Assembly (NCBI GenBank): GCA_017881915.1
Contig: JADGQK010000005.1
Coordinates: forward strand, 1 to 63,219
From: Chloroflexota bacterium
Lineage (GTDB): Bacteria > Chloroflexota > Limnocylindria > Limnocylindrales > CSP1-4
Reading direction: 5' to 3'
DNA length: 63,219 bases
Under the pieces are notes generated by a model. That model was not told the DNA's origin. It made no database searches and saw only the letters and a program-made list of their open reading frames with translations. Shown piece by piece: positions 433-38,736 of this stretch (positions are counted from its first letter, which is position 1; every line of letters begins with the position of its first letter). The position numbers and the translations under genes are program-made.

Positions 433-1512
433 TCAGTCGGCGCGGCGTCGATCGATCGGCGCGGGCCCGGTGGACGCTCGGGCCACGAGCCGGGTCGCGA
501 GGGTTTCGTGGATCGGCTCGGCGGCATCGCCGCCGAGGATGGCAATCAGGAGACGGACGGCCTGCTCGCCCTTGCGGGCGATCGGCTGGTGGATCGTGGT
601 CAGCGCCGGATCGGCGAAGCGAGCGAGGTCGACGTCATCAAAACCGACGACGCTGATGTCCCCGGGCACGCTGAGCCCCCGCTCGCGGGCCGCGCGCATC
701 GCCCCGACCGCAGTGGCGTCGCTCATCGCCAGCACCGCGGTCGGGCGCTGACCGGCGTCCCACGCTTCGGCGAACGAGGCGGCACCGCCCGGGATGGTCG
801 CCTCGGAGGTGACGATCGCCTCGTCGGGCAGGGCGATCCCGGCCGCCGCGAGGGCGGCTCGATAGCCGCGCAGACGGCGGGCCGGCACGCCGTCGGGGTC
901 CTCGCCGCTGACCCGCTCCGAGGGCGCGATCGAGAGGACCACGAAGGCCCGATGGCCCAACCCGACCAGGTGCTCCGCTGCCAGGCGCGCGCCACCTTCA
1001 TCGTCGACCTCGATCGAGGGTTGATCCGGCAGGGCACTCGAGTCGACCAGGACCATCGGCAGGCCGGCCCGGCGGATCTGCTCGACCTCGGGATGATCGG
1101 CCGACAGGCCGACCGCCACGACGCCGTCCACGGTCGCCCGGCCAACCGCCCGGGCCAGCGAGCCCTGCAGCGGCGAGATGAAGTGGAGGGCATACCCGGC
1201 GGCCTCGGCCGCCACGGCTACGCCCGCATTGAACGTCCCGAAATAGGGGTTCTCGAAGACGATTGCGAGCGCCTGCGGGGTCAGGATCCCGATTGAGCGC
1301 GTTCGGCCCTGGGTCAGCATCCGGGCGACCGGGTGGGGCCGATAGCCGAGCGTGTCGGCCACCGATCGAATTCGGCTCGCCGTGTTCGGAGCGAGCCGGC
1401 CGGGCTGGTTGAACGCGAATGACACGGCGGTCTTCGATACCCCGGCCGCGCTGGCCACATCGGAGATCGTCGGACGCCGGACCAGTTGATTCACGCGGTC
1501 GTCAACCCTCAT
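433..1512 (-). CDS. LacI family transcriptional regulator
   Basis: The N-terminal HTH reads TISDVASAAGVSKTAVSFAFNQPGRLAPNTASRIRSVADTLGYRPHPVARML, followed by a periplasmic-binding-protein-like sugar-binding core. The start is set at the internal Met (MRVDDRV...); the longer ORF to 1593 adds a non-homologous Arg-rich leader. Confidence 0.9.
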   Translation of the reverse strand: MRVDDRVNQLVRRPTISDVASAAGVSKTAVSFAFNQPGRLAPNTASRIRSVADTLGYRPHPVARMLTQGRTRSIGILTPQALAIVFENPYFGTFNAGVAVAAEAAGYALHFISPLQGSLARAVGRATVDGVVAVGLSADHPEVEQIRRAGLPMVLVDSSALPDQPSIEVDDEGGARLAAEHLVGLGHRAFVVLSIAPSERVSGEDPDGVPARRLRGYRAALAAAGIALPDEAIVTSEATIPGGAASFAEAWDAGQRPTAVLAMSDATAVGAMRAARERGLSVPGDISVVGFDDVDLARFADPALTTIHQPIARKGEQAVRLLIAILGGDAAEPIHETLATRLVARASTGPAPIDRRRAD

Positions 1513-1592
1513 CGGTCGCTGATCCGTCGCGTCGGGGCGGCCGACCGGCCCGCCAGCGGTGATCTGCCGCCGAACGACGTGGAACTCTGCCA

Positions 1593-1615
1593 AAACCGGT
1601 TTAGCAAACCGGTTT
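1593..1615. promoter_or_regulatory. Tandem palindromic operator candidate (2 x AAACCGGTTT)
   Basis: The perfect 10-bp palindrome AAACCGGTTT occurs twice (1593-1602 and 1606-1615), as AAACCGGTTTAGC AAACCGGTTTAGG. It sits in the divergent region between the LacI gene and the SMP-30 gene. The core resembles LacI/GalR-type AANCGNTT operators. Confidence 0.45.
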
Positions 1616-1806
1616 AGGCGACGCTAGCAGGTCGTCGCTCGGCCGTCAAGATGCGCATGTCACGGAGTCAACATCGGTCAACGGCGGCCGGCTGCGGCCC
1701 GATCAGCGCTCCAATTCCGTGCCCTGATCCGGGCCGCCCGAGGCCAGGACGCGTTCCTGGCCGGGGATCGCCGCAGCCCGGTGTCCGCGGACGCTACAGT
1801 TGGCGG

Positions 1807-2730
1807 GTGAGCAGCGCGATCCGGGTCGTCCACGCGGAGCTCGTCGATATTGACCTCGGCCCGGACGAGATCGGCGAGGGGCCGGTCTGGCTGACGGACC
1901 GCGCCGAGCTTGCCTGGGTGGACATCGAGCGTGGGCTGATCCACCTGCTCGACGTCGCAGCCGGTCGGGTTCGGACCATCGCAGTCGGCGAGATGGTCGG
2001 GGCCATCGCACCAACGCGGTCCGGCTCCCTGGTCGCGGCGGTCGCCACGGGATTCGTGCTCGTCGATCCGACCAGCGGGCGTATTCACCGAATCGTCGAT
2101 CTCGATCCGATCGATCCCACGATTCGGATGAACGACGGCAAGGCCGATCCGTGGGGGCGATTCTGGGCCGGGACGATGGGGCTCGACAAGCGCCCCGGTG
2201 CCGGGAACCTGTACTGCCTGGAGTCCGGCCAGCCGGTCAGCTTGGCGGTCGAGGGCGTCACGATCTCGAACGGCCTCGACTGGAGCGACGACCGCTCGAC
2301 GATGTACTACGTCGATACGCCCACCCGGAGGGTCGACCGCTTCGATCTCGACAGCACAGGGACCACGCTCACGAACCGGCGACCGTTCATCCTGGTGCCC
2401 GCTGCCCTGGGAACGCCCGACGGGCTGACCGTGGACCGGGCGGGGCAGTTGTGGCTGGCCCTGTGGGGCGGCTCGGCCGTGCGCTGCTATTCATCTGGCG
2501 GAGAGCCCGGCACGATGATCGAGCTGCCGACCAGCCACGTCACGAGCTGCACGTTCGGCGGACCTGACCTGGCAGATCTGTACATCACGACTGCCCGGAG
2601 CGAGCTCAACCCGGTCCAGCTCCACCGAGAGCCACTGGCAGGACGCCTGTTCCGCTGCCGTCCCGGGGCCCTGGGGCGACCGGCGAATCTATTCGACGAC
2701 TCGAGCCCGGAGCTTCGCCGCGCCGGCTGA
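1807..2730 (+). CDS. SMP-30/gluconolactonase/LRE family lactonase
   Basis: Family motifs seen: EGPVWL, ISNGLDWSDD..MYYVDT, PDGLTVDRAGQLWLALWGG and TSCTFGGPDLADLYITTA. The start is placed at the GTG at 1807 (307 aa, the usual family length). The upstream part of ORF 1651..2730 is Arg/Pro-rich and non-homologous. Confidence 0.85.
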   Translation: MSSAIRVVHAELVDIDLGPDEIGEGPVWLTDRAELAWVDIERGLIHLLDVAAGRVRTIAVGEMVGAIAPTRSGSLVAAVATGFVLVDPTSGRIHRIVDLDPIDPTIRMNDGKADPWGRFWAGTMGLDKRPGAGNLYCLESGQPVSLAVEGVTISNGLDWSDDRSTMYYVDTPTRRVDRFDLDSTGTTLTNRRPFILVPAALGTPDGLTVDRAGQLWLALWGGSAVRCYSSGGEPGTMIELPTSHVTSCTFGGPDLADLYITTARSELNPVQLHREPLAGRLFRCRPGALGRPANLFDDSSPELRRAG

Positions 2731-15281: not shown

Positions 15282-16271
15282 GTGGACCCAAAGGGGCTGC
15301 CGGACAGACGCCCATCGCATCCGGGCGCGGCAGGGTCTGTGATCGACCAGGTCGTCGAGGTCGCATCGCAGTTCTACGTGCTGCGCCGTACCCAGGTCGA
15401 CATCGCCCACTCCATGGGGCTCGACCCGTCGACGGTCTCGCGCTACCTCAGGCGCGCCCGGGACGAAGGGATCGTGCGGATTGAGATCAGGCCGCCAATG
15501 GATGAGCAGGCGGGGCTCGGGCTTGCGTTGGCCGATCGCTACGGGCTTGCCCGCGCCATCGTTGTCCTGGGCGAGGACCTCTCCGTGGAGGACGTCGCAT
15601 CCGTTGCGGCGGACCACATTGGGGGCTTGCTCCAATCGGGCATGCGTCTCGGCGTTTCGTGGGGCCAGACGCTGTCGGCCGTCGTCCACAGCCTGCCGCC
15701 CGGGATCGTGTCGGACCTCGACATCGCACAGACCGCGGGCGGGCTTGGGAACACGACACCCGGTGTGCAGGGAAGCGAGCTGGTGCGCTACCTCGCCGAG
15801 CTGTACCCGCCCAGCCACGTCCACTACCTGCACGCCCCCGCGATCGTCGACTCGGTCGACATCCAGCAGGCAATCCTTAGCGATAGCTCGGTGCAGGCCG
15901 CCCTCGCCGCCGCCGTGCCCAGCGAGCTCGCGCTGATCGGAATCGGCACGCTCGGGGACGACGCGACGCTCGTCCGAGGTGGCCACCTCTCCGCCGAGGA
16001 CCGGATGCTTCTCCTCGAGCACGGCGCGGTCGGCACCATGAACACGCGATTCTTCGACGACGAGGGGCGTCCAGTCGCCGACCTCGAGGAGCGCACGATC
16101 GCGATCAACTGGGAGGAACTCCGGCGCGTGCCGACGGTCGTGGCGGTCGCGGTGGGAACAGCCAAGTGCCGTGCGATCAGGGGCGCGCTCAAGACTGGCT
16201 GTATTGACATCCTGGTCACGGATGCCCCTACGGCTCGCCTCCTTCTTGAGACTGCGCCAGCGGCTGCCTGA
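15282..16271 (+). CDS. SorC/DeoR-type sugar-phosphate-binding transcriptional regulator (LsrR-like)
   Basis: The HTH is VASQFYVLRRTQVDIAHSMGLDPSTVSRYLRRARDEGIVRIEI, followed by a SorC sugar-binding domain (…GVSWGQTL…IGIG…VGT…VAVAVG..K..AI.GAL..G.I..LVTD). It has a GTG start and is divergent from the lsrK/lsrF operon. Confidence 0.8.
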   Translation: MDPKGLPDRRPSHPGAAGSVIDQVVEVASQFYVLRRTQVDIAHSMGLDPSTVSRYLRRARDEGIVRIEIRPPMDEQAGLGLALADRYGLARAIVVLGEDLSVEDVASVAADHIGGLLQSGMRLGVSWGQTLSAVVHSLPPGIVSDLDIAQTAGGLGNTTPGVQGSELVRYLAELYPPSHVHYLHAPAIVDSVDIQQAILSDSSVQAALAAAVPSELALIGIGTLGDDATLVRGGHLSAEDRMLLLEHGAVGTMNTRFFDDEGRPVADLEERTIAINWEELRRVPTVVAVAVGTAKCRAIRGALKTGCIDILVTDAPTARLLLETAPAAA

Positions 16272-16281
16272 AGAGGCATCA

Positions 16282-16443
16282 AGGGGCAACCCGCCCGAAG
16301 CCATCGAGTCGAGCCTTGAGCGCGCCGAGGAACCGCGCCGCCTCGGCGCCGTCAACGGCGCGATGGTCCGCCGAGAGCGTGGCCGTCATCACCGAACGGA
16401 TGGCGACGGCGTCGTCGACGACAACAGGCCGCCGGACTGCGCG
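16282..16443 (-). pseudogene. Relic C-terminus of a 2-oxoacid dehydrogenase E2 (lipoamide acyltransferase) catalytic domain
   Basis: The reverse frame between stop codons at 16444-16446 and 16279-16281 reads RAVRRPVVVDDAVAIRSVMTATLSADHRAVDGAEAARFLGALKARLDGFGRVAP*. This is the canonical E2 C-terminal block, including the DHRxxDG active-site motif. There is no upstream catalytic domain. It overlaps the TIM-like gene 3' end in another frame. Confidence 0.6.
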
Positions 16444-17207
16444 TCAGCCTCCAGGTCGAGCGGTCGAACGCGGGCGTGGGCGATCCGGGCGAATTCCACA
16501 GGATCGAGGGCTGCTCGCCCGACGAAGAGCCCGTCCACCCCCGGTTGGGCGAGCAGCTCCCGGCACGTGTCGAAGTCGACGCTTCCGCCGTAGATGACCC
16601 GCGGTGCCGCGCAGCCGAGCCGAACGAGATAATCCCGGACCGCCAGGTGGATCGCCGAGACGTGCTCGCCCGAGGCGACGCTTGCACCCGCACCAATGGC
16701 CCAGTACGGCTCGTAGGCCACCACGACCCGGGCCAGCTCGTCCGGCCGGATGGCTCCGAGAATCGCGCCCAGATGGCGGAGGACGACGGCGCGGGCCGTC
16801 GAGGTCGGCATCGCAACGCGTTCGCCGACGCACACGATCACCTCGAGTCCGCAGTGAACCCCCGTGGCGACCTTCCGGGCGATCTGCCGATCTCCTTCGC
16901 CATGATCGCGGTGCCGCTCGGAGTGGCCGACCTCTACGAACCGGCAACCCAGATCAACCAGCATCGGGGCGGAGATGTCGCCCGTATGCGCACCCGAGAT
17001 ACTCTCGTGGACGTCCTGCGCCCCCCACGCAATTGCCGTGCCGGCCAGCTCCTCGCGCGCGACCCACAGGGCAGTGAACGGTGGCAGGACGAACAGATCC
17101 CGATCGTCGATATCGGCGACGAGTGGGACCAACGCCTGGAAGTACGCCCGAGCCTCGGTAGCCGTGAAGTTCATCTTCAGACTCGTCCCGACCAGCTCCC
17201 GGGTCAT
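16389..17207 (-). CDS. tpiA: Triose-phosphate isomerase family protein (paralogue-like; possibly a tetrulose/triose phosphate isomerase)
   Basis: GTSLKMNF carries the catalytic Lys (with Ser where TIM has Asn), VEVGHSERH the catalytic His, and VVAYEPYWAIGAG the catalytic Glu loop. The last roughly 14 residues (…GGLLSSTTPSPSVR) are read out of frame from the E2 relic. The start overlaps the RLP stop by 4 bp. Confidence 0.85.
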   Translation of the reverse strand: MTRELVGTSLKMNFTATEARAYFQALVPLVADIDDRDLFVLPPFTALWVAREELAGTAIAWGAQDVHESISGAHTGDISAPMLVDLGCRFVEVGHSERHRDHGEGDRQIARKVATGVHCGLEVIVCVGERVAMPTSTARAVVLRHLGAILGAIRPDELARVVVAYEPYWAIGAGASVASGEHVSAIHLAVRDYLVRLGCAAPRVIYGGSVDFDTCRELLAQPGVDGLFVGRAALDPVEFARIAHARVRPLDLEADAQSGGLLSSTTPSPSVR

Positions 17208-18397
17208 TGCGGATCGCTCGGCGACAGCGCCTCGTCGATCGCCACCCTGATCGCGCGGGCCCCGGCCTGGGCGCCTCCGGGATGCCCCTGGATCGCGCCG
17301 CCGACACCCAGGATGACGTCGATTCCCGACTGCTGGACCAGCGGCCCGATCATCGCGGCGGTCACGCCGCCGGCGAGCATGGGCATGGCCGGCTTGAGCT
17401 TCCCTCTCGGCTCAGCCAGCCACCTGAGCGTCTGTTCATAGACGCGACGCGGAGTCGAGCGAGCGTACGGCGTGGTCGTGAACACGGCATCCGCTCCGGC
17501 CAGGCGGAGCAGCTTCCCGAACAGGACGGCCTGCCCGATCCCCGTGCTGACGGCTCCGGTAAACACCTCCGCGGCGGCGGTGTGGACCAGGATCGGCACG
17601 CCAAGCTCGCTTTCGACGAGCGCCTGGAACGGATCCAGCCCGACCACGAGCGCATTGACCATGACCGCGTCCGCGCCGCCATCGACGGCCGCCCGGGCGG
17701 TATCGACGAGACGGATCGACCGGTCGGTGACGTTGGCGATGTACCTGGCCCGCTGGCCGGTCTCCTCCGCCACGCGGTCCAGCCGCTCGCGGTACACCCG
17801 CGAGCGCTCGGCAACCCGGTTGAACGGCGCATCCCCGAGCAGCTCGTCATCCTTGATCAGGTCGGCCCCGCCGCGCGCGGTCTGCTCGAGCAGGTTGGCT
17901 CCGACCTTCGGCGAGTACCCCGTACATGGCTTGATCATGTTCAGGAGCAGGGGCCGGTGCCAGACGCCGGTCGTCTGTCGCCAGCCGGCCACGCCCCACT
18001 GCGGCCCGGGAAAGGCTGCCTCGTAGGACGCCGGCAGGTCGATGTCGACGAGTCGGGCGGTCAGCGACGTCGAAGGGTCATTGCCGACGAGCGTGGTCAG
18101 CATCATCGGGAACTGCGGCCCGAAGTTCTCGGTTGGGAAGGCGACCCGCAGGAGCCAGCGAGAGCCGATCGATTCCCCGCCGACCTCGCCCGCCGGCGGA
18201 CCATGGCCAACCTCGACCACCCGGGCTCCGTGCTGGCGGCGCATCCTCGGGCTGATCCCGGGCACGGGCACCCACGTGCCGATGCTCTGACCCGTGGCGA
18301 ACGCGTCGGCCGCCTCCGTCACGTGGTCGGCAGGTAGCTCGGCCAGGTACGTCGCCACGAGTTCCTGCCGCTCACGCCGTGCGGTCATGCTCTCCAC
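17204..18397 (-). CDS. RuBisCO large-subunit-like protein (form IV, RLP)
   Basis: GGADLIKDDELL matches the RuBisCO GxDFxKDDE carbamate/metal motif. NMIKPCTG corresponds to IKPKLG with the second Lys replaced by Cys. ILVHTAAA corresponds to the HIHRA block, with Thr at the position that appears to correspond to the Arg. MLAGG…ILGVGGAIQGHPGG corresponds to the C-terminal phosphate-binding loops. There is no small-subunit gene and no PRK gene nearby. Confidence 0.85.
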   Translation of the reverse strand: MESMTARRERQELVATYLAELPADHVTEAADAFATGQSIGTWVPVPGISPRMRRQHGARVVEVGHGPPAGEVGGESIGSRWLLRVAFPTENFGPQFPMMLTTLVGNDPSTSLTARLVDIDLPASYEAAFPGPQWGVAGWRQTTGVWHRPLLLNMIKPCTGYSPKVGANLLEQTARGGADLIKDDELLGDAPFNRVAERSRVYRERLDRVAEETGQRARYIANVTDRSIRLVDTARAAVDGGADAVMVNALVVGLDPFQALVESELGVPILVHTAAAEVFTGAVSTGIGQAVLFGKLLRLAGADAVFTTTPYARSTPRRVYEQTLRWLAEPRGKLKPAMPMLAGGVTAAMIGPLVQQSGIDVILGVGGAIQGHPGGAQAGARAIRVAIDEALSPSDPQ

Positions 18398-18439: not shown

Positions 18440-19198
18440 CTAGTGCATCCCGCGCCCACCGGCGACGATCAACAGCTCGCCGGTGATGAAGTCGGCATCG
18501 GTCGAGGCCAGGAACGCGGCCGAAGCGGCAACGTCCGCAGGTGTGCCCCAGCGCCCCAGCGCCGTCTCGGCGAGGATCCGTTCGTGCACCTCCGGGTCAA
18601 TGTCTTCCATCATGTCGGTCCTGATCCAGCCCGGGCAGATGGCATTGACCCTGATGTGCGGCCCGAGGGCGAGCGCCATCGCCTTGGTCAGGCCGTTCAT
18701 GCCGGCCTTCGAGGTGACGTACTCGGTGAAGCGCATCGCCGAAGGGTGGTACAGGCCCGAGTTCGACGAGATGTTGATGATCGTGCCGGACTGCTGCGCC
18801 AGCATGATCGGGGCGACCTCCTTCGAGCACAGGTAGGCGCCCTTCAGGTTGATGTCGATCGTCCGGTCCCAGTCATCCTCGGTTGTCTCCAGGACGCCCT
18901 TGGTGACCATCACCCCCGCGTTGTTGACGAGGATGTCGATCCGCCCGAAGCGTTCCATGGTGGCCCGAACGAGGCGCTGGACATCGCCGCTCCTTGACAC
19001 GTCGGCCTGGACCGTGAGGGCGCCAACCCCCGCGGCCTCGATCGCCCGGGCGGCCGCGGCGGCCTCCGGCTCCTTCGAGACGTAGTTAATGGTGACGGCG
19101 GCGCCCTCGTCAGCGAAACGCTGGGCGATGGCCAGGCCGATCCCGCGGGATGAGCCGGTCACGATTGCGACCTTGCCCGCCAGTCGTTGCTCGCTCAT
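18440..19198 (-). CDS. SDR family oxidoreductase (FabG-like)
   Basis: The signatures AGKVAIVTGSSRGIGLAIA, NNAG and S…YVTSK are present. Confidence 0.9.
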   Translation of the reverse strand: MSEQRLAGKVAIVTGSSRGIGLAIAQRFADEGAAVTINYVSKEPEAAAAARAIEAAGVGALTVQADVSRSGDVQRLVRATMERFGRIDILVNNAGVMVTKGVLETTEDDWDRTIDINLKGAYLCSKEVAPIMLAQQSGTIINISSNSGLYHPSAMRFTEYVTSKAGMNGLTKAMALALGPHIRVNAICPGWIRTDMMEDIDPEVHERILAETALGRWGTPADVAASAAFLASTDADFITGELLIVAGGRGMH

Positions 19199-19216: not shown

Positions 19217-20212
19217 TCAGGTGCCGGCCGCGGCTCCGGACTGGACCACAGAGCGCACGCCCGCCACGATGTCATCGACCTGCGGGACGGATGCTTTCTC
19301 GAGTCCGAGGTTGAACGGGATCGTCGTGTTCCAGCCGGCCACCCGCACGATCGGAGCGCGGAGATGGTCGAAGGCCCGCTCGGCCACGATCGCCGCGACG
19401 TCGCTGCCCACGCCACCCCGCTTGATCGCCTCCTGGGCGATCACCAGCCGGCCGGTCCGGCGCACCGAGTCGAGCACGCAGTCGACATCCATGGGCACGA
19501 GCGTCCGCAGGTCGATGACCTCGGTGGAGATCCCTTCTGCGGCGAGCAGCTCGGCCGCCTGCAGGCTCTTCACGACCATGTGCGACCAGGCGACCAGGGT
19601 GACGTCCGATCCCGAGCGCTTGATGTCGGCCTGGCCGAGCGGAATGAGATAGTCCTCGGCGGGAACCTCGCCGTCGGTCATGTACAGCAGCTTGTGCTCG
19701 ATGAAGATCACCGGGTCATCGTCGCGGATGGCGGACTTCAACAGGCCCTTGGCATCGCGGGGGGTCGCGGGCATGACCACCTTCAGCCCCGGCACGTGGT
19801 AGTACAGCGCCTCGAGGCTCTGCGAGTGCTGGCCGGCCAGCGAGTTCCCGGTCCCGCCCTGGGTGCGCACGACGAGTGGGACGCGGCCCTCTCCGCCGGA
19901 CATGAAGCGGTATTTGGCTGCCTGGTTGACCACCTGGTCCATCGCCTGCAAGAGGAAGTCGATGAACAGGATCTCCACGACCGGGCGCTGGCCTGCGATC
20001 GCCGCTCCGGCGCCAAGCCCGACGAAGCCGGCCTCGCTCAAGGGCGTGTCGATGACCCGGCCCGGACCGAACTGGGCAAGGAGCCCCTCGGTGACCTTGT
20101 ATGAGCCGCCCCGCTCACCGATCCCCTCGCCAACGCAGAACACGGTCGCATCGCGTTCCATCTCTTCCTGAAGAGCGGCCCGGAGGGCCTCCCGGTATTT
20201 CATCGTGACCAT
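19217..20212 (-). CDS. TPP-dependent 2-oxoacid/acetoin dehydrogenase E1 component, beta subunit
   Basis: MVTMKYREALRAALQEEMERDATVFCVGEGIG…GRVIDTPLSEAGFVGLGAGAA..G.RPVVE… is a typical E1-beta / transketolase pyrimidine-binding and C-terminal domain. The start is set at the internal Met with an upstream GGAAGGA SD. Confidence 0.9.
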   Translation of the reverse strand: MVTMKYREALRAALQEEMERDATVFCVGEGIGERGGSYKVTEGLLAQFGPGRVIDTPLSEAGFVGLGAGAAIAGQRPVVEILFIDFLLQAMDQVVNQAAKYRFMSGGEGRVPLVVRTQGGTGNSLAGQHSQSLEALYYHVPGLKVVMPATPRDAKGLLKSAIRDDDPVIFIEHKLLYMTDGEVPAEDYLIPLGQADIKRSGSDVTLVAWSHMVVKSLQAAELLAAEGISTEVIDLRTLVPMDVDCVLDSVRRTGRLVIAQEAIKRGGVGSDVAAIVAERAFDHLRAPIVRVAGWNTTIPFNLGLEKASVPQVDDIVAGVRSVVQSGAAAGT

Positions 20213-20285
20213 GTTCCTTCCGGCTCGGGTGAGCCGACGGGCCGGCTGCCTCGTCCGTCGGCGCTGGTCTGGACGGAGGTCGGCG

Positions 20286-21248
20286 CTACAGCGTCGCGAC
20301 CTCCGCAAGAAAGTCTTCGACCGATGGGTTCGGGCTGGCAGTGGCGAACTCGACGGCCTCGTCGATCAGGCGCTCGACCCGTTCGTCGATCAGCGTGATG
20401 GCGGCTTCGTCGACACCGGCCCGGGCGAGGCGGGCGCGGAGCACGATCAGGGGGTCGTGGGCCTTCCAGCGCTGGAGCTCCTCGGGCGGCAGGTAGAGGC
20501 CCGGGTCGTTCACGTGGTGGCCACCATGGCGGTAGGTCAGGCACTCGACCAGCGACGGCCCCTCGCCGGCTCGCGCTCGACGCAGGGGTTCCTGCATCGC
20601 GCCGTAGACGATCGCGGCATCGTTGCCGTCGACGGTCACCCCGGGCATGCCATAGCCGGCGGCGCGCTGGGACAGGTGTTCGACGCGGGCCGAGTCCCGG
20701 ATCGGAGTGGAGACGGCGTACTGGTTGTTCTCCAGGACGAAGATCACGGGGAGGTCCCAGATCGCTGCCAGGTTCATCGATTCGTGCCAGATGCCGTTGG
20801 CCGACGAGCCGTCGCTGCAGAATGCCACGACGACTTCGGGACCTTCTCGCTGCTTGATCGCGAGCGCCGCCCCAGCGGCAATCGCCAGTCCGCCACCGAC
20901 GATGCCGTTCGCCCCGAGGTTCCGGACCGATCGACTCGCGACGTGCATCGATCCGCCCCGCCCCCGGCAGTACCCGGACTCCTTGCCGAACAGCTCCGCC
21001 ATCATCCGCCTGGGCTCGTGCCCCTTCGCCAGCGCATGCCCGTGACCGCGATGGGTGCTCACGATGTAGTCATCGGGCTCGATGGCGGCCATCGCACCGA
21101 CTGCGATCGCCTCCTCGCCCAGGTAGGGATGGAAGTAGCCGCGGATGTTCCCCAGGCGGTACTGCGCGATGGCCTGTTGCTCGAACCTTCGGATCGTCTC
21201 CGTCATCTCGTACATGGACAGGAGCAGGTCCGCCCCGATCTCGCTCAT
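20286..21248 (-). CDS. TPP-dependent 2-oxoacid/acetoin dehydrogenase E1 component, alpha subunit
   Basis: The E1-alpha TPP-binding pattern is present: …RRFEQQAIAQYRLGNIRGYFHPYLGEEAIAVG…STHRGHGHALAKG…GSMH…FCSDGSSANGIWHESMNLAAIWDLPVIFVLENNQYA. Confidence 0.9.
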   Translation of the reverse strand: MSEIGADLLLSMYEMTETIRRFEQQAIAQYRLGNIRGYFHPYLGEEAIAVGAMAAIEPDDYIVSTHRGHGHALAKGHEPRRMMAELFGKESGYCRGRGGSMHVASRSVRNLGANGIVGGGLAIAAGAALAIKQREGPEVVVAFCSDGSSANGIWHESMNLAAIWDLPVIFVLENNQYAVSTPIRDSARVEHLSQRAAGYGMPGVTVDGNDAAIVYGAMQEPLRRARAGEGPSLVECLTYRHGGHHVNDPGLYLPPEELQRWKAHDPLIVLRARLARAGVDEAAITLIDERVERLIDEAVEFATASPNPSVEDFLAEVATL

Positions 21249-21281: not shown

Positions 21282-22220
21282 TCAGTATTCGGGAACGACC
21301 CGGCCGGCCATCACGTCCAGCTGGATCTGCTCCACCTCTGCGCCGTCGATCGAGGCGGTGACCGCGCCGAGCACGCCGGCGTCGACGCTCCGCCCGACAA
21401 GCACCGCCCGCGTGTCCCGATCACCGACCCGTTCGCGAACGGCCGGCGAGAGCGGCCGATCAAGCACCCCGTCGGGCCACCTGACCCGCATCTCGTCGAT
21501 CGTCCACACGGCGGCATCGCCGTGCCCTTCCCCAAGCAGCCGGGCGATCTGGACGCCCATGGCCGGCAGCAGGTGAACATCGGCCCCGCTGAATTCCAGG
21601 GAAGTCAGGAGTTGCTGGTCGGCCGAATGGCGGTCGACGATGACCCGCAGCGGGTGCGAGTCCGTTCCCGTCGACGTATAGAACACCCGGTGCCCGGTGT
21701 TGTAGGTGAGCGGCGGGAGTTCGACGACGACCGAATCATCCGGACTGCACAGCTCCCCGGCTGCGAAGCTCGACATCGCGGCGAGGTGGCAGCGTCCTTC
21801 GCGAACTGCCTGAAGACGCTGTCGGGATCCCCGCACGAAGACGAGGAATACCTCCATCGACTCCCGGGTGAGGATCTGCTTGATCGCGGTCGCGAGCGCC
21901 TCGTAGCGCGGCGACGACGCGAGCGGCAGGGCGATGACGAGCGGCCGCCCGTTCTCCGCGACGGCCCACAGCCGACTGAGCGACCGCCCGATCATGAAGG
22001 CTCCCCGGCGCCCTCGCGTCTCGATGTCGACCGTCCCGGCCTCCTCGAGCCGCCCGATCGCGAAATGGATCGACGAAAGGCTCGAGTGATGCTGGCGGGC
22101 AAGCTCCCGGACCGTCGGCAGTCGGGTCGGTGGCTCGGCCGCGGTCAGGAACTGTCGAGCGAGGGCTGGCACGATGTCGGCGACGGCTCGAGACCGATTG
22201 CGTTCGTAATTGCCAAACAC
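21282..22220 (-). CDS. YhfZ-like transcriptional regulator (GntR-type wHTH with a YhfZ C-terminal domain)
   Basis: ADIVPALARQFLTAAEPPTRLPTVRELARQHHSSLSSIHFAIGRLEEAGTVDIETRGRRGAFMIG aligns by eye with the N-terminus of E. coli YhfZ (…LARYLLGEK…LKTIDELA.E.RSSVG…AL..LE..GAI.IE.RGR.G…). The start is set at the GTG at 22220 (313 aa); upstream of that the long ORF is non-homologous. Confidence 0.7.
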   Translation of the reverse strand: MFGNYERNRSRAVADIVPALARQFLTAAEPPTRLPTVRELARQHHSSLSSIHFAIGRLEEAGTVDIETRGRRGAFMIGRSLSRLWAVAENGRPLVIALPLASSPRYEALATAIKQILTRESMEVFLVFVRGSRQRLQAVREGRCHLAAMSSFAAGELCSPDDSVVVELPPLTYNTGHRVFYTSTGTDSHPLRVIVDRHSADQQLLTSLEFSGADVHLLPAMGVQIARLLGEGHGDAAVWTIDEMRVRWPDGVLDRPLSPAVRERVGDRDTRAVLVGRSVDAGVLGAVTASIDGAEVEQIQLDVMAGRVVPEY

Positions 22221-22657
22221 AATCCGAGGATACGCCCTGAGCGTCCGGGGGTCCAGTCCTCGATGATCGGGAGCTCGGAGAATGTCAGCGCTGGGCACCG
22301 AGTGGCGACCTCGACACCCTTCTCGGCTCGGGTCCCCGCGCTTGACATGCCAGCCTACAATTCCTTTGTTCTGAACTCCGAAACAGAGACCGTGGAGGCG
22401 GCGACGCGTGGTCAGCCGAGTCACGGCCCGCCCGAACTCTGGTGAGGCCGGGAGTGGTCACGCGCCAAGTCACAGGCGGACCGGCACACCCAGGATCGGG
22501 AACGGACGGTTACTGGCCGGATCCCGAGCCGTCCAGCTCAGGTGCTCTCCAACCGCACGTCATCCGTCGGGGTAGGCGGGCGGGGAGCCGTCGGACTCAG
22601 GGCACCGGCCAAACTCAGATCGCCCAGAGTCGAACGAATCGCAAAGGAGCCACGTAC

Positions 22658-23457: not shown

Positions 23458-23721
23458 GTGGCTGTGAAAGTCGTCATGCCCCAGGCGGGCCAGGACCTGG
23501 AGACCGGGACGGTCAAGCTCTGGCTCAAGGCCGTGGGCGACACCGTGGCCAAGGGCGAGTCGATCGTCCAGATCGAGACGGAGAAGATCACCCTCGATGT
23601 CGAGGCGCCGGCCGCGGGGGTCCTCCTGAAGATCCTCGTCCCGGATGAGACGGAGACAGCGATCTTCTCCACGATTGCGATCATCGGCCAGCCGGACGAG
23701 GACATCTCCGGTATCGAGTAG
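23458..23721 (+). CDS. Stand-alone biotinyl/lipoyl attachment domain protein (E2 N-terminal lipoyl-domain-like)
   Basis: The 87-aa product reads VKVVMPQAGQDLETGTVKLWLKAVGDTVAKGESIVQIETEKITLDVEAPAAGVLLKI. ETEK occupies the position of the lipoyl-lysine motif ETDKA. The ORF stops right after the domain, with no linker, PSBD or catalytic domain. Confidence 0.8.
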   Translation: MAVKVVMPQAGQDLETGTVKLWLKAVGDTVAKGESIVQIETEKITLDVEAPAAGVLLKILVPDETETAIFSTIAIIGQPDEDISGIE

Positions 23722-33670: not shown

Positions 33671-34417
33671 CTAGCCCTGGAGCGGGATCCCCAGCTCATC
33701 GAGCGAATCGAGCAGCTCCTGCGGATCGCGGTAGACTCGGAAGGCTCCCGCCTGCAGCAGCTCGTCGACGCCGTATCCCCCGCTCAGAAGCCCGACGCTG
33801 AGCATGCCGGCGCGGCGCGCGGCCAGCAGGTCCCAGACGGCGTCGCCAACCACGTAGACCTCCTCGCGCCGGACACCCATCCGCTCCTGGCAGGCGAGGA
33901 AGAGGTCCGGCTCGGGCTTCGCTCGCAGCACGTCGCCCCGGCTCACGACGATTACGTCCGCAGGCAGGCCCAGGACCCCCAGCGACGCGTCAATGTCGGG
34001 GTGCCGCCCGGAGGTCGCGATTCCGAAGGGCACGCCATTCTCGCGCAGCCAGCCGACCAGCTCACGCGCGCCGGGCAGGGGCCGGCGCACGGGCAGGAGG
34101 GCCTGGTAGATCTCGCCGTGACGTTGCTGCAGCCGCTCCTGCTCGGCCGCTGAGAGCGACCGCCCGATCTCGCGCGCGAGGGCGCGAGCGGACAGCCCAC
34201 CGCTCATGCCGATGCGCCGATGGACGAGCCAGCCGGGAACTTCCAGGCCCGCCTCCGCGAGCGCCTGCTGGAGGGCCAGCACGTGGGCATAGACCGTGTC
34301 GACGAGGGTGCCGTCGAGGTCGAAGATGAACGCACGCACGCCTGTAAGTCTGGCACGTCGGTTCCGCCCTGCGCCACCTTGCCCAGGTTCGCTCTGCCTG
34401 CTAGACTGAGCAAACAT
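33671..34417 (-). CDS. HAD-IA family phosphatase (phosphoglycolate phosphatase / beta-PGM-like)
   Basis: FIFDLDGTLVDT is motif I, …ATSG… motif II and …VGDAVWDL… motif IV. The true start may be the GTG at 34339 (VRAFIFDLDG). Confidence 0.8.
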   Translation of the reverse strand: MFAQSSRQSEPGQGGAGRNRRARLTGVRAFIFDLDGTLVDTVYAHVLALQQALAEAGLEVPGWLVHRRIGMSGGLSARALAREIGRSLSAAEQERLQQRHGEIYQALLPVRRPLPGARELVGWLRENGVPFGIATSGRHPDIDASLGVLGLPADVIVVSRGDVLRAKPEPDLFLACQERMGVRREEVYVVGDAVWDLLAARRAGMLSVGLLSGGYGVDELLQAGAFRVYRDPQELLDSLDELGIPLQG

Positions 34418-34431
34418 TCACGACTGAGCAA
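34404..34431. promoter_or_regulatory. Direct repeat GACTGAGCAA x2 (operator candidate) overlapping a sigma70-like promoter
   Basis: GACTGAGCAA occurs at 34404-34413 and 34422-34431, immediately upstream of the SorC-type regulator gene. TTGCCC-17 nt-TAGACT lies at 34379-34407. Confidence 0.3.
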
Positions 34432-35496
34432 TTGATCGCCGCAAGCGAGGGCGCCGTGCGTTTGCCAGCCGACTTCCGGCAGGACGATTTCGAGCTCCTC
34501 GCACGGATCGCCCAGCGCTACTACATCGACGACCAGACGCAGGCGCAGATCGCCCGGGAATTCGCGCTCTCGCGTCCGAAGGTGCAACGTCTCCTCGAGC
34601 GGGCGCGCTGGTCGGGCATCGTCGACATCCACATCCAGGCTCCGCCCGGGCTCAACCTGGACCTCGAGCTCGAGCTGCGCAAGGCGTTCCACCTGACCGA
34701 CGCGATCGTTAGCCCGTCACGGGCGGACGCGCAGTCGCAACGGGAGGCCGTAGCACGCAGCACGGCGCACTACCTGGTCCAGCACCTGCGCGATGGCACG
34801 CTCGTCGCGGTGGGCCATGGCCGCGACACCGGGGAGGTGCCGCGCTTCTTCCATCCTGCGCACGGGCTCGACTGCACGTTCGTCAGCGCCATGGGTGGTT
34901 CGCCACGCGCCGACGCCCCCACGAACCCGAACGAGATCTGTCGGGCGCTGGCGGAACGCTGCGGCGGTCATGCCGTGAGCCTGTATGCCCCCGCCTACGT
35001 CGACAGCGCCGAGATGCGCAACCGCCTGCTCGAGCAGGAGGCGGTCGCGCACACGCTGGCGGTCGCCGCGCAGGCGAGCGTCGCCCTGGTCGGGATCGGG
35101 GGCACGGACGATGGCTGCACGATGGTCCGCAATGGCTGTCTGTCCGTTGACGAGATCGCCCGGCTGAGGAGTGAGGGCGCCGTGGGAGACGTCCTCGGGA
35201 ACTACGTGGACGTCGAAGGCAGGTTGATCGAATCGCCGCACCGGCTGATTGCCCTTTCGCTTGAGCAACTCGAGCGGATCGAGACGGTGATCGCGGTGGT
35301 CAGCGAAGTCGAGAAGCCGCCCGCCATCCTGGGGACCCTGCGGGCGGGGGTCATTGACGTGCTCATCGTGGACGCGGGCAACGCCCGAGCCGTCCTCGAC
35401 CTCGACGAGGCGTCGAGGTCAACCCAGCACCTGCCGACGGCGCCGCGCCGTGACGCGCGCCTGGCGGGCACCCAGACAGCGTCGCAGCGGAGGTAA
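34432..35496 (+). CDS. SorC/DeoR-type sugar-phosphate-binding transcriptional regulator
   Basis: The HTH is [47 protein letters not shown], followed by a SorC sugar-binding domain. The start could be the TTG at 34432 or the GTG at 34456. Confidence 0.85.
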
Positions 35497-35501
35497 TTCC
35501 A

Positions 35502-36356
35502 GTGCCGATCGTACCTACCAAGGAGATCCTGGATCGTGCCTTTGCCGCGCGCTACGGCGTGGCCGCGATCAACGTCTTCAATGACCTCACGATGGAGGCC
35601 GTGCTGGCCGCCGCCGAGGAGTTGCGGGCGCCCGTCATCCTCCAGACATCGGTGAAGCACGTGAAGATGACCGGAGTCGATGCCATGTACGCAATGTGGC
35701 GGGCGTACGCCGGCCACGTATCGGTCCCGACGGCCCTCCACCTCGACCACTGCCCCGAGCGCGAGGTCATCTCCGCATGTCTCGCCAGGGGTTGGAACTC
35801 CATCCTCTTCGACGCCAGCAAGCTGTCGGTCGAAGAGAACAAGCGCCAGTGTGCTGAGGTCGTCGCCGAGGCCCGCCGCTATGGCGCCAACGTCGAGGGC
35901 GAGATCGAAGGCTTCAAGCGGACCGAGGAGATGACCGGCGACGAGGCCGAGCACGTCCAGACGTTGGAGACAGTCATCGACTTCATCAAGGTCACGGGTG
36001 TCGACGTGTTCGCGCCGGCCATCGGCAACGCCCACGGGACGTACAAGGCGGCACCCAAGCTCGACTCACAGCGAGTCACCGACATCGTCGAGGCGACCGG
36101 CCTCCCGGTTGCCCTGCACGGCGGCACCGGCATGACCCCGGAGCAGTTCAGCGACCTCATCGCCCGGGGCTGCGCCAAGGTCAACATCAGCACCGCAGTC
36201 AAGATCGCCTTCATGAAATCCGGCTACGACTTCATGACCGAGCGCCCGGGTGACTACGACCCGCCCAAGCTGTTCACCGCCCAGCGCGCCGCCGTCATCG
36301 AGATGGCCAAGTACCACATCCGGCTCTTTGGCAGCGAAGGGAAGGCCTGGACATGA
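35502..36356 (+). CDS. Class II fructose/tagatose-bisphosphate aldolase family protein
   Basis: [19 protein letters not shown]…APVILQTS…ALHLDHC…EGEIE…AIGNAHG…LHGGTG matches the FbaA/KbaY/GatY pattern. It has a GTG start with a GGAGG SD. Confidence 0.85.
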
Positions 36357-37126
36357 ACGCCCTCGTCTTCGACTGCGATGGCGTCCTTGCCGACACCGAG
36401 CGGTACGGTCACCTGCCGGCCTTCAACGCGACCTTTCGAGAGGTCGGGCTCCCACTGCAGTGGTCGGAGCAGGACTATGGCCGCAAGCTCCAGATCGCTG
36501 GCGGCAAGGAGCGCATCGCCAGCGAGCTGACGCCCGAGTTCGTCCGGGCCAACGGCCTGCCGGCCGACCCGGACGCGCTGGCCGCCGAAGTTGCGAAGTG
36601 GCACAAGCGCAAGACTCAGATCTACACCGAGATGGCGGGCACAGGCATGCTCCCGCCGCGGCCCGGCATCACCCGGCTGATCCGCGCTGCCCAGGACGCC
36701 GGCTGGCTGATGGCCGTTGCCTCGACATCGGCCGAGCCTTCGGTGCGGGCCATCCTTGGCAATGCCGCGGGTCCCGAGCGTGCCGCCCGGTTCGACCTGG
36801 TCCTGGCCGGCGACTGCGTCCCGAACAAGAAGCCCGCCCCCGACATCTACCTCCTCGCCGTCGAGCAGCTCGGCGTCGACTCCGCCGAGGTCCTGGTGAT
36901 CGAGGACTCGCGCAACGGCCTCGAGGCGGCGGACGCGGCCGGCCTGCGCTGTCTGATCACGGTCAACGGTTATACGGAGCAGGAGGACTTCCGCGAAGCG
37001 ATTCTCGTCGTTTCGTCCCTCGGGGACCCGGATGGAGAGACGACGACGATCATGGCCAATCGTTCGGCCGCACGGCCGGGCGCGTTCGTCGCGCTTGCTG
37101 ACCTGGAGGCCTGCCTCGCCAGGTAG
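36353..37126 (+). CDS. HAD-IA hydrolase, CbbY-like sugar-phosphate phosphatase
   Basis: [22 protein letters not shown]…VASTS…[11 protein letters not shown] is CbbY-like. The start overlaps the aldolase stop by 4 bp. Confidence 0.8.
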
Positions 37127-37214
37127 CTCCGACCCGCGCCCCTTGCCGGCAATTGACTGAGGTCCGCATGATGAAGGCGTCCCTCGACGACCTCGCAACC
37201 GAAGGAGTTCCGCA

Positions 37215-37685
37215 TTGGCCAAACCCGTGGCGATCGGCAGCGACGAGGCCGGCTTTCAGCTCAAGATCCTGATCTCTGGCCTGCTCCGCGAGGAAGGTCT
37301 GGAAGTCACTGATTTCGGCTGCGAATCCGAGGATCCGGTCGACTACCCCGATGTCGCATTCGCGCTGGCGAAGGCGGTCTCCCGCGGTGAACACGACCGG
37401 GGCATCCTGATCTGCGGCACCGGGATTGGCATGGCGATCACAGCCAACAAGGTTCCCGGAGTGCGGGCGGCGCAGGCCCACGATCCCTATTCCGCCGAAC
37501 GCGCCCGCATGTCGAACGATGCGCAGATCCTTGCCCTGGGCGCCCGGGTGATCGGCCCGGAGCTGGCCAGGTCGATCGTCCGAGCCTGGCTTCGGGCAGA
37601 ATTCGCCGGAGGAAACTCGGCGCGCAAGGTGGACAAGATCACGGCGGGCGAGGAAGCGCTGGGGCGGGTCGGGCAGGCCGACTGA
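37215..37685 (+). CDS. rpiB: RpiB/LacA/LacB family sugar-phosphate isomerase
   Basis: VAIGSDEAGFQLK…DFG…DYPD…GILICGTGIGMAITANKVPGVRAA…ERARMSNDAQILALGARVIG is the RpiB pattern. It has a TTG start at 37215 with a GAAGGAG SD 7 nt upstream. Confidence 0.85.
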   Translation: MAKPVAIGSDEAGFQLKILISGLLREEGLEVTDFGCESEDPVDYPDVAFALAKAVSRGEHDRGILICGTGIGMAITANKVPGVRAAQAHDPYSAERARMSNDAQILALGARVIGPELARSIVRAWLRAEFAGGNSARKVDKITAGEEALGRVGQAD

Positions 37686-37713
37686 CGCCCGGCAGCAAGC
37701 GGGAGGAGCGGAC

Positions 37714-38736
37714 GTGGCCCAGGGACCCGAAAAGCGAAGCGGGGTCTTGAAGAAGCTCCTCAATGACCCGTTCGATGCAGTCGACGAGATGGTCGAAGGC
37801 TTCGTCGCCGCTCATGAGGATCTGGTCCGGCTGGTCGGTCCGCGGGTCGTCTGCCGCAAGGCAGCCGAACGGACCAAGGTGGGCATCGTCACCGGCGGTG
37901 GGTCGGGCCACGAGCCGGCCTTCCTCGGCTACGTTGGTCGCGGATTGGCGGACGCGGCCGCGATCGGCAACGTGTTCGCCGCCCCCTCCCCCGATGTCTG
38001 CCTCGAGGCGATCCGGGCTGCGTCAGGCGGCCTGGGCGTGCTCCTTCTCTATGGCAATTACAGCGGCGACATCCTCAACTTCGGGATCGCCGCCGAGCGC
38101 GCGGCAGCCGAGGGGATCGCGACCCGGACCGTCGTGGTCACCGACGACGTCGCGTCCGCTGGCCGTGTCGAGGTCAACAAGCGGCGGGGCATCGCGGGCG
38201 ACGTCTTCGTGATCAAGTGTGCCGGCGCCATGGCTGAGCGAGGCGCCTCCCTCGACGACGTCGAGCGCGTCGCGCGCGACGCCAATCGAGCGACTCACAG
38301 CATGGGCGTCGCACTGTCCGCCTGCGAGGTGCCGGGCTCGGAGCGCCTGTCGTTCGAGCTGGCAGATGACGAGATGGAGATCGGGCTGGGCATTCACGGT
38401 GAACCCGGCGTTCGGCGCGGCCCGCTGATGACCGCGGACGAGATCGCGGCGATCCTGGTCGAGGCACTCCTGGCCGATCTCGATCAGCCCACGGGCAACG
38501 ACCTGGCGCTCCTGGTGAACGGCCTGGGAGCCACCGCGCGTCTCGACCTGTACGTCCTCTACCGGGCGGCTCGGCAGGGACTCGAACGCGCCGGCAATCG
38601 GGTCAGCCGGAGCCTTGTTGGCGAGTACGTCACCTCGCTCGAGATGGCCGGTGCGTCGGTCACGGTCACGACCCTCAACGCCGAGCTCGCCGAACTCCTC
38701 GACGCGCCGGCTCGCGCCGTCGGATTCGTGCGGTGA
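37714..38736 (+). CDS. dhaK: Dihydroxyacetone kinase family, DhaK (substrate-binding) subunit
   Basis: KKLLNDPFDAVDEMVEGF…VGIVTGGGSGHEPAFLGYVG…AAPSP is the Dak1 domain signature. Confidence 0.85.
   Translation: MAQGPEKRSGVLKKLLNDPFDAVDEMVEGFVAAHEDLVRLVGPRVVCRKAAERTKVGIVTGGGSGHEPAFLGYVGRGLADAAAIGNVFAAPSPDVCLEAIRAASGGLGVLLLYGNYSGDILNFGIAAERAAAEGIATRTVVVTDDVASAGRVEVNKRRGIAGDVFVIKCAGAMAERGASLDDVERVARDANRATHSMGVALSACEVPGSERLSFELADDEMEIGLGIHGEPGVRRGPLMTADEIAAILVEALLADLDQPTGNDLALLVNGLGATARLDLYVLYRAARQGLERAGNRVSRSLVGEYVTSLEMAGASVTVTTLNAELAELLDAPARAVGFVR

Follow-up and report, generated by a model that had tools for sequence, protein, structure and literature searches.

The window, that is, the whole stretch of 63,219 nucleotides that was analysed, carries on its minus strand an operon headed by a YhfZ/GntR-like regulator gene (21282-22424). 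The regulator is followed by a full-length E1 alpha gene (20286-21248), which encodes a TPP-dependent dehydrogenase E1 component, and by an E1 beta gene (19217-20308) with transketolase-like pyrimidine-binding and C-terminal domains. The real start of E1 beta probably lies ~28 codons downstream of the listed TTG. Farther downstream are an SDR gene (18440-19198), 87% identical to its orthologue in genome G107, a gene for a RuBisCO-like protein (RLP; 17204-18397), and a gene for a TIM-family isomerase of 272 aa (16389-17207). The RLP stop overlaps the TIM start (ATGA). Profile matches uphold this order of E1 alpha, E1 beta, SDR, RLP, and TIM on one strand, which a first-pass annotation had read from the open reading frames.

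A stand-alone lipoyl-domain protein of 87 aa (PF00364, motif IETEKI) is encoded on the plus strand (23458-23721). It is intact, and E1 alpha, E1 beta, and the lipoyl carrier are all full length in the window. On the other side of the operon, a SorC/LsrR-type regulator gene (15282-16271, plus strand) is convergent with the operon. The wider setting includes RLP-TIM(-RpiB) modules, an FGGY kinase, SDRs, a class II aldolase, HADs, and an ABC sugar importer. Judged from this gene content, it is a sugar or sugar-acid catabolic island. Source names of homologues and the labels of matching sequencing runs point to a probable Limnocylindria-type member of the Chloroflexota living in permafrost, peat, or soil.

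The E2cat relic and the tail of TIM

Between the TIM gene and the SorC-type gene, 54 codons lie between two stops on the minus strand (16282-16443). The stop of this frame (16282-16284) is 10 nt from the stop of the SorC-type gene. The minus-strand translation of 16279-16446 is RAVRRPVVVDDAVAIRSVMTATLSADHRAVDGAEAARFLGALKARLDGFGRVAP, flanked by a stop on either side, and reproduces exactly the peptide first read there. The 54-aa peptide matches PF00198 (2-oxoacid_dh) at profile positions 180-226 of 232, with an E-value of 6.4e-14 and 52.4 bits against a cut-off of 23 (48.8 bits in the scan of the whole genome). It also matches an HMM that we made from 31 orthologous E2cat genes (E 7e-19, positions 174-219 of 220). 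The catalytic His and Asp of the DHRxxDG motif are kept as SADHRAVDG, which aligns with the motif of the intact orthologues. The DNA homology to intact E2cat genes begins at ~16446 and fades past the GFG codons at ~16295. The solved PDH and BCKDH cores (PF00198; 3b8k, 3l60, and 6zzn) share with the relic their last ~47 positions and the His and Asp of DHRxxDG. The first-pass proposal that this is the C-terminus of an E2 catalytic domain, including the active-site motif, is borne out by both profiles.

A complete E2 catalytic domain (~230 aa) is a trimer-forming fold that binds CoA and lipoamide. The relic falls short of this fold, as it runs from position 174 (E2cat HMM) or 180 (PF00198) to the end and represents ~20% of the domain. 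It does not have a start of its own either: its frame opens right after a TGA, and the earliest GTG or ATG are codons 18-19. In a six-frame scan of the window with PF00198 and the E2cat HMM, the relic gave the sole significant match, and further E2-like sequence was not found in any frame. This agrees with the earlier remark that nothing upstream is E2-like; the DNA 5' of the relic is the full-length TIM gene.

The relic is 77-80% identical at the amino acid level to the E2cat proteins of G020 and G107, two genomes of the sister genus g6, and 71% identical to that of the metagenome locus L087, versus 47% to the housekeeping E2 of its own genome (contig C117). Therefore, we count the relic to the operon-linked E2cat group. 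Its strand and its position, downstream in the E1ab-RLP operon, match those of operon-linked E2cat genes. A copy of the housekeeping E2 was considered as its source and rejected on the same identities. At the level of sequence, the relic is confirmed as the 3' end of a stand-alone E2 gene that would have encoded the catalytic domain only (E2cat). The genome scanned is a metagenome-assembled genome (MAG) of 2.9 Mb in 166 contigs, 92% complete, and a dedicated acyltransferase core was not found in it; the scan returned the relic and the ordinary E2 on C117 only. The statement that the E1 has no cognate E2 core in cis thus stands.

The TIM gene is complete. Its ORF matches PF00121 over the full length (residues 5-245, profile positions 2-244 of 245, E 8e-64; core 16473-17207), and the catalytic residues K11, H95, and E166 (Lys, His, and Glu) are invariant in an alignment of 13 relatives. 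The last 18 codons (DAQSGGLLSSTTPSPSVR, 16392-16445) and the stop are E2-derived DNA read in another frame, in accordance with the first-pass description of a TIM gene that ends inside the relic. In relatives, native TIM tails read ...IAHAG(L/V)xP... and continue for 3-25 residues. The operon TIM is 39.5% identical to the housekeeping TIM on contig C134 and is not the housekeeping copy. Its nearest non-conspecific relatives, P0004 and P0006, are 79% identical (76-79% for the set P0004-P0008), and in a scan of genome contigs the closest relative is 57-59% identical (MAGs of Limnocylindria and Chloroflexia).

Three positions of the window TIM differ from other strains. The stop is TGA at 16389-16391, where all four other strains have TCA and then TGA and hence one extra Ser. 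The window has His99 (16912) and Gln24 (17137), where the four other strains and more distant relatives have Arg. These window-specific differences are either true changes or consensus errors of the MAG.

Intact E2cat genes in related operons

Both g6 genomes carry an orthologous operon (77-87% protein identity) with the gene order regulator-E1a-E1b-SDR-RLP-E2cat-HAD-FBA-HAD. Their E2cat has 236 aa, and its start overlaps the RLP stop (GTGGCTGA / ATGGCTGA) with no TIM in between. Intact E2cat genes in operons have ~236-248 codons and encode the catalytic domain only, with no lipoyl or subunit-binding domain. Each opens with the catalytic domain and has its own start codon, and the G020 E2cat aligns across the whole catalytic domain of the solved structures cited above. 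Classical E2s have lipoyl and peripheral-subunit-binding domains; in contrast, the parent gene of the relic had neither. In G020, the SDR gene beside this E2cat gives SDR matches in two overlapping frames (L015, 6332-7088; residues 1-157 and 152-252), which reflects either a frameshift or an assembly error.

At a cut-off of E<=1e-35, E2cat-type matches occur in 165 of the 401 genomes of the order, in open frames of ~230-245 aa. A separate 87-aa gene lies directly 5' of E2cat in 26 of 28 loci inspected, and its homologue in the window is a lipoyl domain, indicating that the E2 of such systems is naturally made of two genes. On gene content, the split into a lipoyl carrier and a catalytic-only E2 is the rule in this order for at least one 2-oxoacid-dehydrogenase-type system. 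In family f2, 39 of 42 streamlined genomes of 1.0-1.4 Mb have the 87-aa lipoyl gene directly followed by a catalytic-only E2 of 230-245 aa. In loci L056-L083, neither of the two genes has an obvious peripheral-subunit-binding domain.

Acyltransferase cores that are served by separate lipoyl domains are known elsewhere. In Corynebacterium and Mycobacterium, OdhA/Kgd act with AceF/DlaT, and E2 catalytic domains use lipoyl domains in trans. Like these systems, the parent system of the relic kept the acyltransferase core apart from the lipoyl carrier. Unlike the E2cat-E1 fusion of OdhA/Kgd, it would have comprised two separate small genes, a difference seen in the genes alone.

The split arrangement bears on a reading in which an inversion divided one classical E2 into the lipoyl ORF (23458-23721, plus strand) and the relic (16282-16443, minus strand). 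The two pieces are 7 kb apart on opposite strands and do recall both ends of an E2. However, separate genes are the rule in the order, intact orthologues have a start codon of their own at the beginning of the catalytic domain, and G107 has an SDR2-lipoyl arrangement, divergent from the regulator, beside an intact E2cat. In addition, an inversion would not account for the ~175 missing codons of the catalytic domain. Such an inversion is extremely improbable.

Comparison of synteny with related genomes also bears on the first-pass account, in which a classical E2 in an ancestral E1a-E1b-E2 operon was lost. The E2 ancestry held in this comparison and the E1a-E1b-E2 order did not, as the intact relatives have a catalytic-only E2cat downstream of RLP or TIM.

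The junction and the loss of E2cat

The TIM/relic junction recurs in other samples. L084, a JGI contig of a different sample, matches the window at 98.5% identity over 3.2 kb and has the same order of RLP, TIM, relic, and SorC. Contigs of the peat run X5 and of the soil runs X6 and X7, from three further studies, also bridge the junction. With four other samples spanning it, the junction is, at the contig level, not an assembly chimera. The source is a MAG of 166 contigs, which might suggest a chimera at this point, but the independent contigs leave it a negligible probability. The first 233 nt of L084 depart from the window inside RLP (codon ~340; window 17378 onward). They have a lower GC content and are not found in this genome; they represent a chimeric end of the contig or else an insertion or rearrangement in RLP that is specific to this strain.

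Between the window and L084, the relic differs at 5 of 162 positions (3.1%). The corresponding values are 0.5% for the TIM core, 1.8% for SorC, and 4.6% for intergenic DNA. This comparison, with only 5 substitutions in the relic, suggests that the relic may be neutral between strains. In strain X7, a 65-nt stretch (16315-16379) is deleted, and a contig of 3594 nt joins 16314 to 16380. The DHRxxDG codons are lost with it and the E2 frame shifts, yet the TIM stop and SorC are untouched. As the deletion takes out the active-site motif, we conclude that the relic is decaying. The X7 differences within TIM are mostly at third codon positions, indicating that TIM is under purifying selection.

Compared with functional orthologues, the relic has a dN/dS of 0.13-0.17, about the same as that between functional genes. 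This indicates that the relic was a working gene for most of its history and that the loss is recent. By these sequence distances, the loss is placed after the split from the sister lineages (dS ~1) and before the present strains (dS ~0.07; 1.5-2.5% differences). The first-pass notion of a datable scar is justified by this bracket.

We also considered whether the relic has a function, be it as a small ORF, as a recoding target through which TIM would gain an E2 C-terminus, or in regulation or termination. Consistent with a function, the 54 codons are still open with the catalytic motif intact, and 3 of the 5 differences between strains are third-position changes in the E2 frame. However, the first start codon comes no earlier than codon 18, ~80% of the fold is gone, and strain X7 lacks the motif. 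TIM orthologues elsewhere have unrelated tails of variable length, and no terminator-like or promoter-like site was found in a scan of 15900-16800. A functional relic is therefore very improbable. In the metatranscriptome run X20, only part of SorC and two spurious 18-nt pieces were matched.

How E2cat was lost is best addressed by comparing loci from metagenomes. Loci L085, L086, and L090 read lipoyl-E1a-E1b-RLP-TIM. Locus L087 has the same genes followed by a 44-aa HAD fragment and an intact E2cat. Locus L089 reads RLP-TIM-RpiB, convergent with SorC and then w14457-w13302-w11744, and this right-hand synteny is common to L089 and the window. In the RLP tree, the window, L085/L086, L087/L088/L090, and g6 form one clade (support 98/96), and the TIM tree recovers a corresponding clade with the TIMs of the RLP-clade loci (support 97/94). 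The window and L084-L090, including L089, all have the ATGA overlap between RLP stop and TIM start. Given the congruent trees and the conserved overlap, RLP and TIM are an old co-inherited pair. The outgroups of the RLP in-group clade are all RLP-TIM-RpiB, and this triad is the commonest setting of the RLP clade. A chimeric RLP made by recombination of two types was rejected: DNA identity to G020 extends to ~10 nt from the RLP stop, and the RLP falls in one clean clade.

The loss of E2cat by deletion can be seen in a second case. Over 6.8 kb, loci L088 and L087 share 99.3% identity, but 675 nt of E2cat are missing from L088. The deletion (L087 9656-10330; L088 6802-6807) has ~6 nt of microhomology at its junction, and L088 keeps a 38-aa E2 C-terminal relic that is fused in frame to the HAD N-terminal fragment. 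The breakpoints of L088 and the window differ (HMM position 190 versus 174), indicating that the two losses are independent. The HAD fragment itself is a 44-aa, HAD2-type N-terminal piece with DxDGVLxD (L087 9501-9638; L088 6653-6790), which in L087 separates TIM from E2cat. This further gene relic points to repeated shuffling of these operons.

The relic is most probably a non-functional 3' remnant, ~50 of ~240 codons, of a stand-alone E2cat that was lost by deletion. The first-pass annotation had instead proposed that an SDR-RLP-TIM block was inserted or substituted. A version of this proposal has TIM, or the SDR-RLP-TIM block, recombine into an RLP-E2cat ancestor and overwrite the first ~175 codons of E2cat. 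In its favour, RLP in g6 runs directly into E2cat with overlapping stop and start, an arrangement without an intervening TIM that counts against a deletion. The window shares the g6-like architecture from the regulator to SDR, and the TIM-containing metagenome loci are without SDR. In addition, the region is prone to rearrangement: HAD1, FBA, HAD2, and RpiB have moved to 33.6-37.7 kb in the window, apart from the operon. On the other hand, the TIM and RLP trees are congruent with the window TIM inside the operon-linked clade, the ATGA overlap is conserved, and every outgroup RLP is already linked to TIM. Intact E2cat occurs beside SDR-RLP in g6 (G020 and G107) and beside RLP-TIM in L087. As SDR-RLP and RLP-TIM each coexist with intact E2cat, we favour a deletion over the insertion of a block, which we consider rather unlikely. 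The RLP tree leaves the four in-group lineages as a polytomy, which weighs against certainty that TIM and a full E2cat stood in tandem in the ancestor.

In the deletion reading, an ancestral operon would have joined the lipoyl protein, E1 alpha, E1 beta, and E2cat with RLP and the TIM-family isomerase. A deletion in the ancestor of the species would have begun in the short, variable tail of TIM and ended near E2cat codon 175. It would have taken the stop of TIM with it, so that the last 18 codons of the ORF are now E2 remnant read in another frame. With no start and four fifths of the fold gone, the remnant cannot yield an acyltransferase. It would then drift neutrally, and one strain has already cut it further. 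This would leave E1ab and the lipoyl carrier without a core of their own; they may rely on the housekeeping E2, or they may be disappearing.

As in other remnants of microhomology deletions, the 3' end keeps its frame and stop, the neighbouring ORF is extended, and the decay is polymorphic. Compared with known bacterial deletion remnants, nothing is unusual in kind, and L087 and L088 catch the same gene in the course of being deleted. The relic is an ordinary kind of gene decay, unusually well documented here. Two tempting misreadings of the locus, the insertion of a block and the inversion of a classical E2, are corrected by these comparisons.

The right flank of the operon differs among relatives. 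The relic abuts the convergent SorC gene, L089 has RpiB, and g6 has HAD-FBA-HAD, and more than one rearrangement may have occurred at this flank. In g6, HAD1-FBA-HAD2 come right after E2cat, and in genomes of the same genus RpiB comes after TIM, indicating that the window is a mosaic of two ancestral loci. The stretch at 33671-38736 holds HAD1 (minus strand), a second SorC-type regulator, a class II FBA, HAD2, RpiB, and a 340-aa gene (plus strand).

Pathway context

E2cat is lost or absent in this species, in L088, and in L085/L086, where it was not found within 10 kb, and E1ab and the lipoyl carrier are intact in each. With L085/L086 also without an E2 within 10 kb, E2cat appears to be repeatedly dispensable. 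The relic marks a former complete split 2-oxoacid-dehydrogenase set in an RLP operon of a soil and permafrost lineage, and, taken with the second, independent deletion, it suggests that this pathway can do without the E2 core. That the RLP-linked module of E1ab and lipoyl carrier needs no dedicated acyltransferase core is a conceivable but doubtful generalisation of the repeated loss. If so, the acyl-lipoyl intermediate may be handed to the housekeeping E2 (C117), by analogy with the use of lipoyl domains in trans by OdhA in corynebacteria, or the TPP enzyme may be used for non-oxidative cleavage. Alternatively, selection on E1ab and the lipoyl carrier may be relaxed, with decay to follow. If the generalisation is true, the operon would represent a novel route of sugar or sugar-acid catabolism in which RLP is coupled to a split 2-oxoacid-dehydrogenase system. 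The relic in any case provides a lead for assigning a function to the RLP/E1ab/TIM operon.

In tetrose and D-apiose catabolism, RLPs reportedly act with LerI-type TIMs and DerI-type RpiBs. The RLP-TIM-RpiB triads that are common in this RLP clade resemble these modules, in which a LerI-like TIM and a DerI-like RpiB accompany the RLP. Unlike them, the operon in the window also contains E1ab, an SDR, and a lipoyl protein, and it once contained E2cat, a comparison made by genes alone. To our knowledge, none of the RLP pathways characterised so far has a context of E1ab, SDR, lipoyl protein, and E2cat. The connection of RLPs with apiose catabolism is attributed to Carter et al. 2018 (Nat Chem Biol 14:696) as cited in PMC10176493.

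In one relative, at locus L041 (G060, contig C13, ~941-2155, minus strand), the operon-linked TIM continues in frame into an RpiB domain (TIM::RpiB). The combination of PF00121 and PF02502 also occurs in two database proteins, P0034 and P0110.
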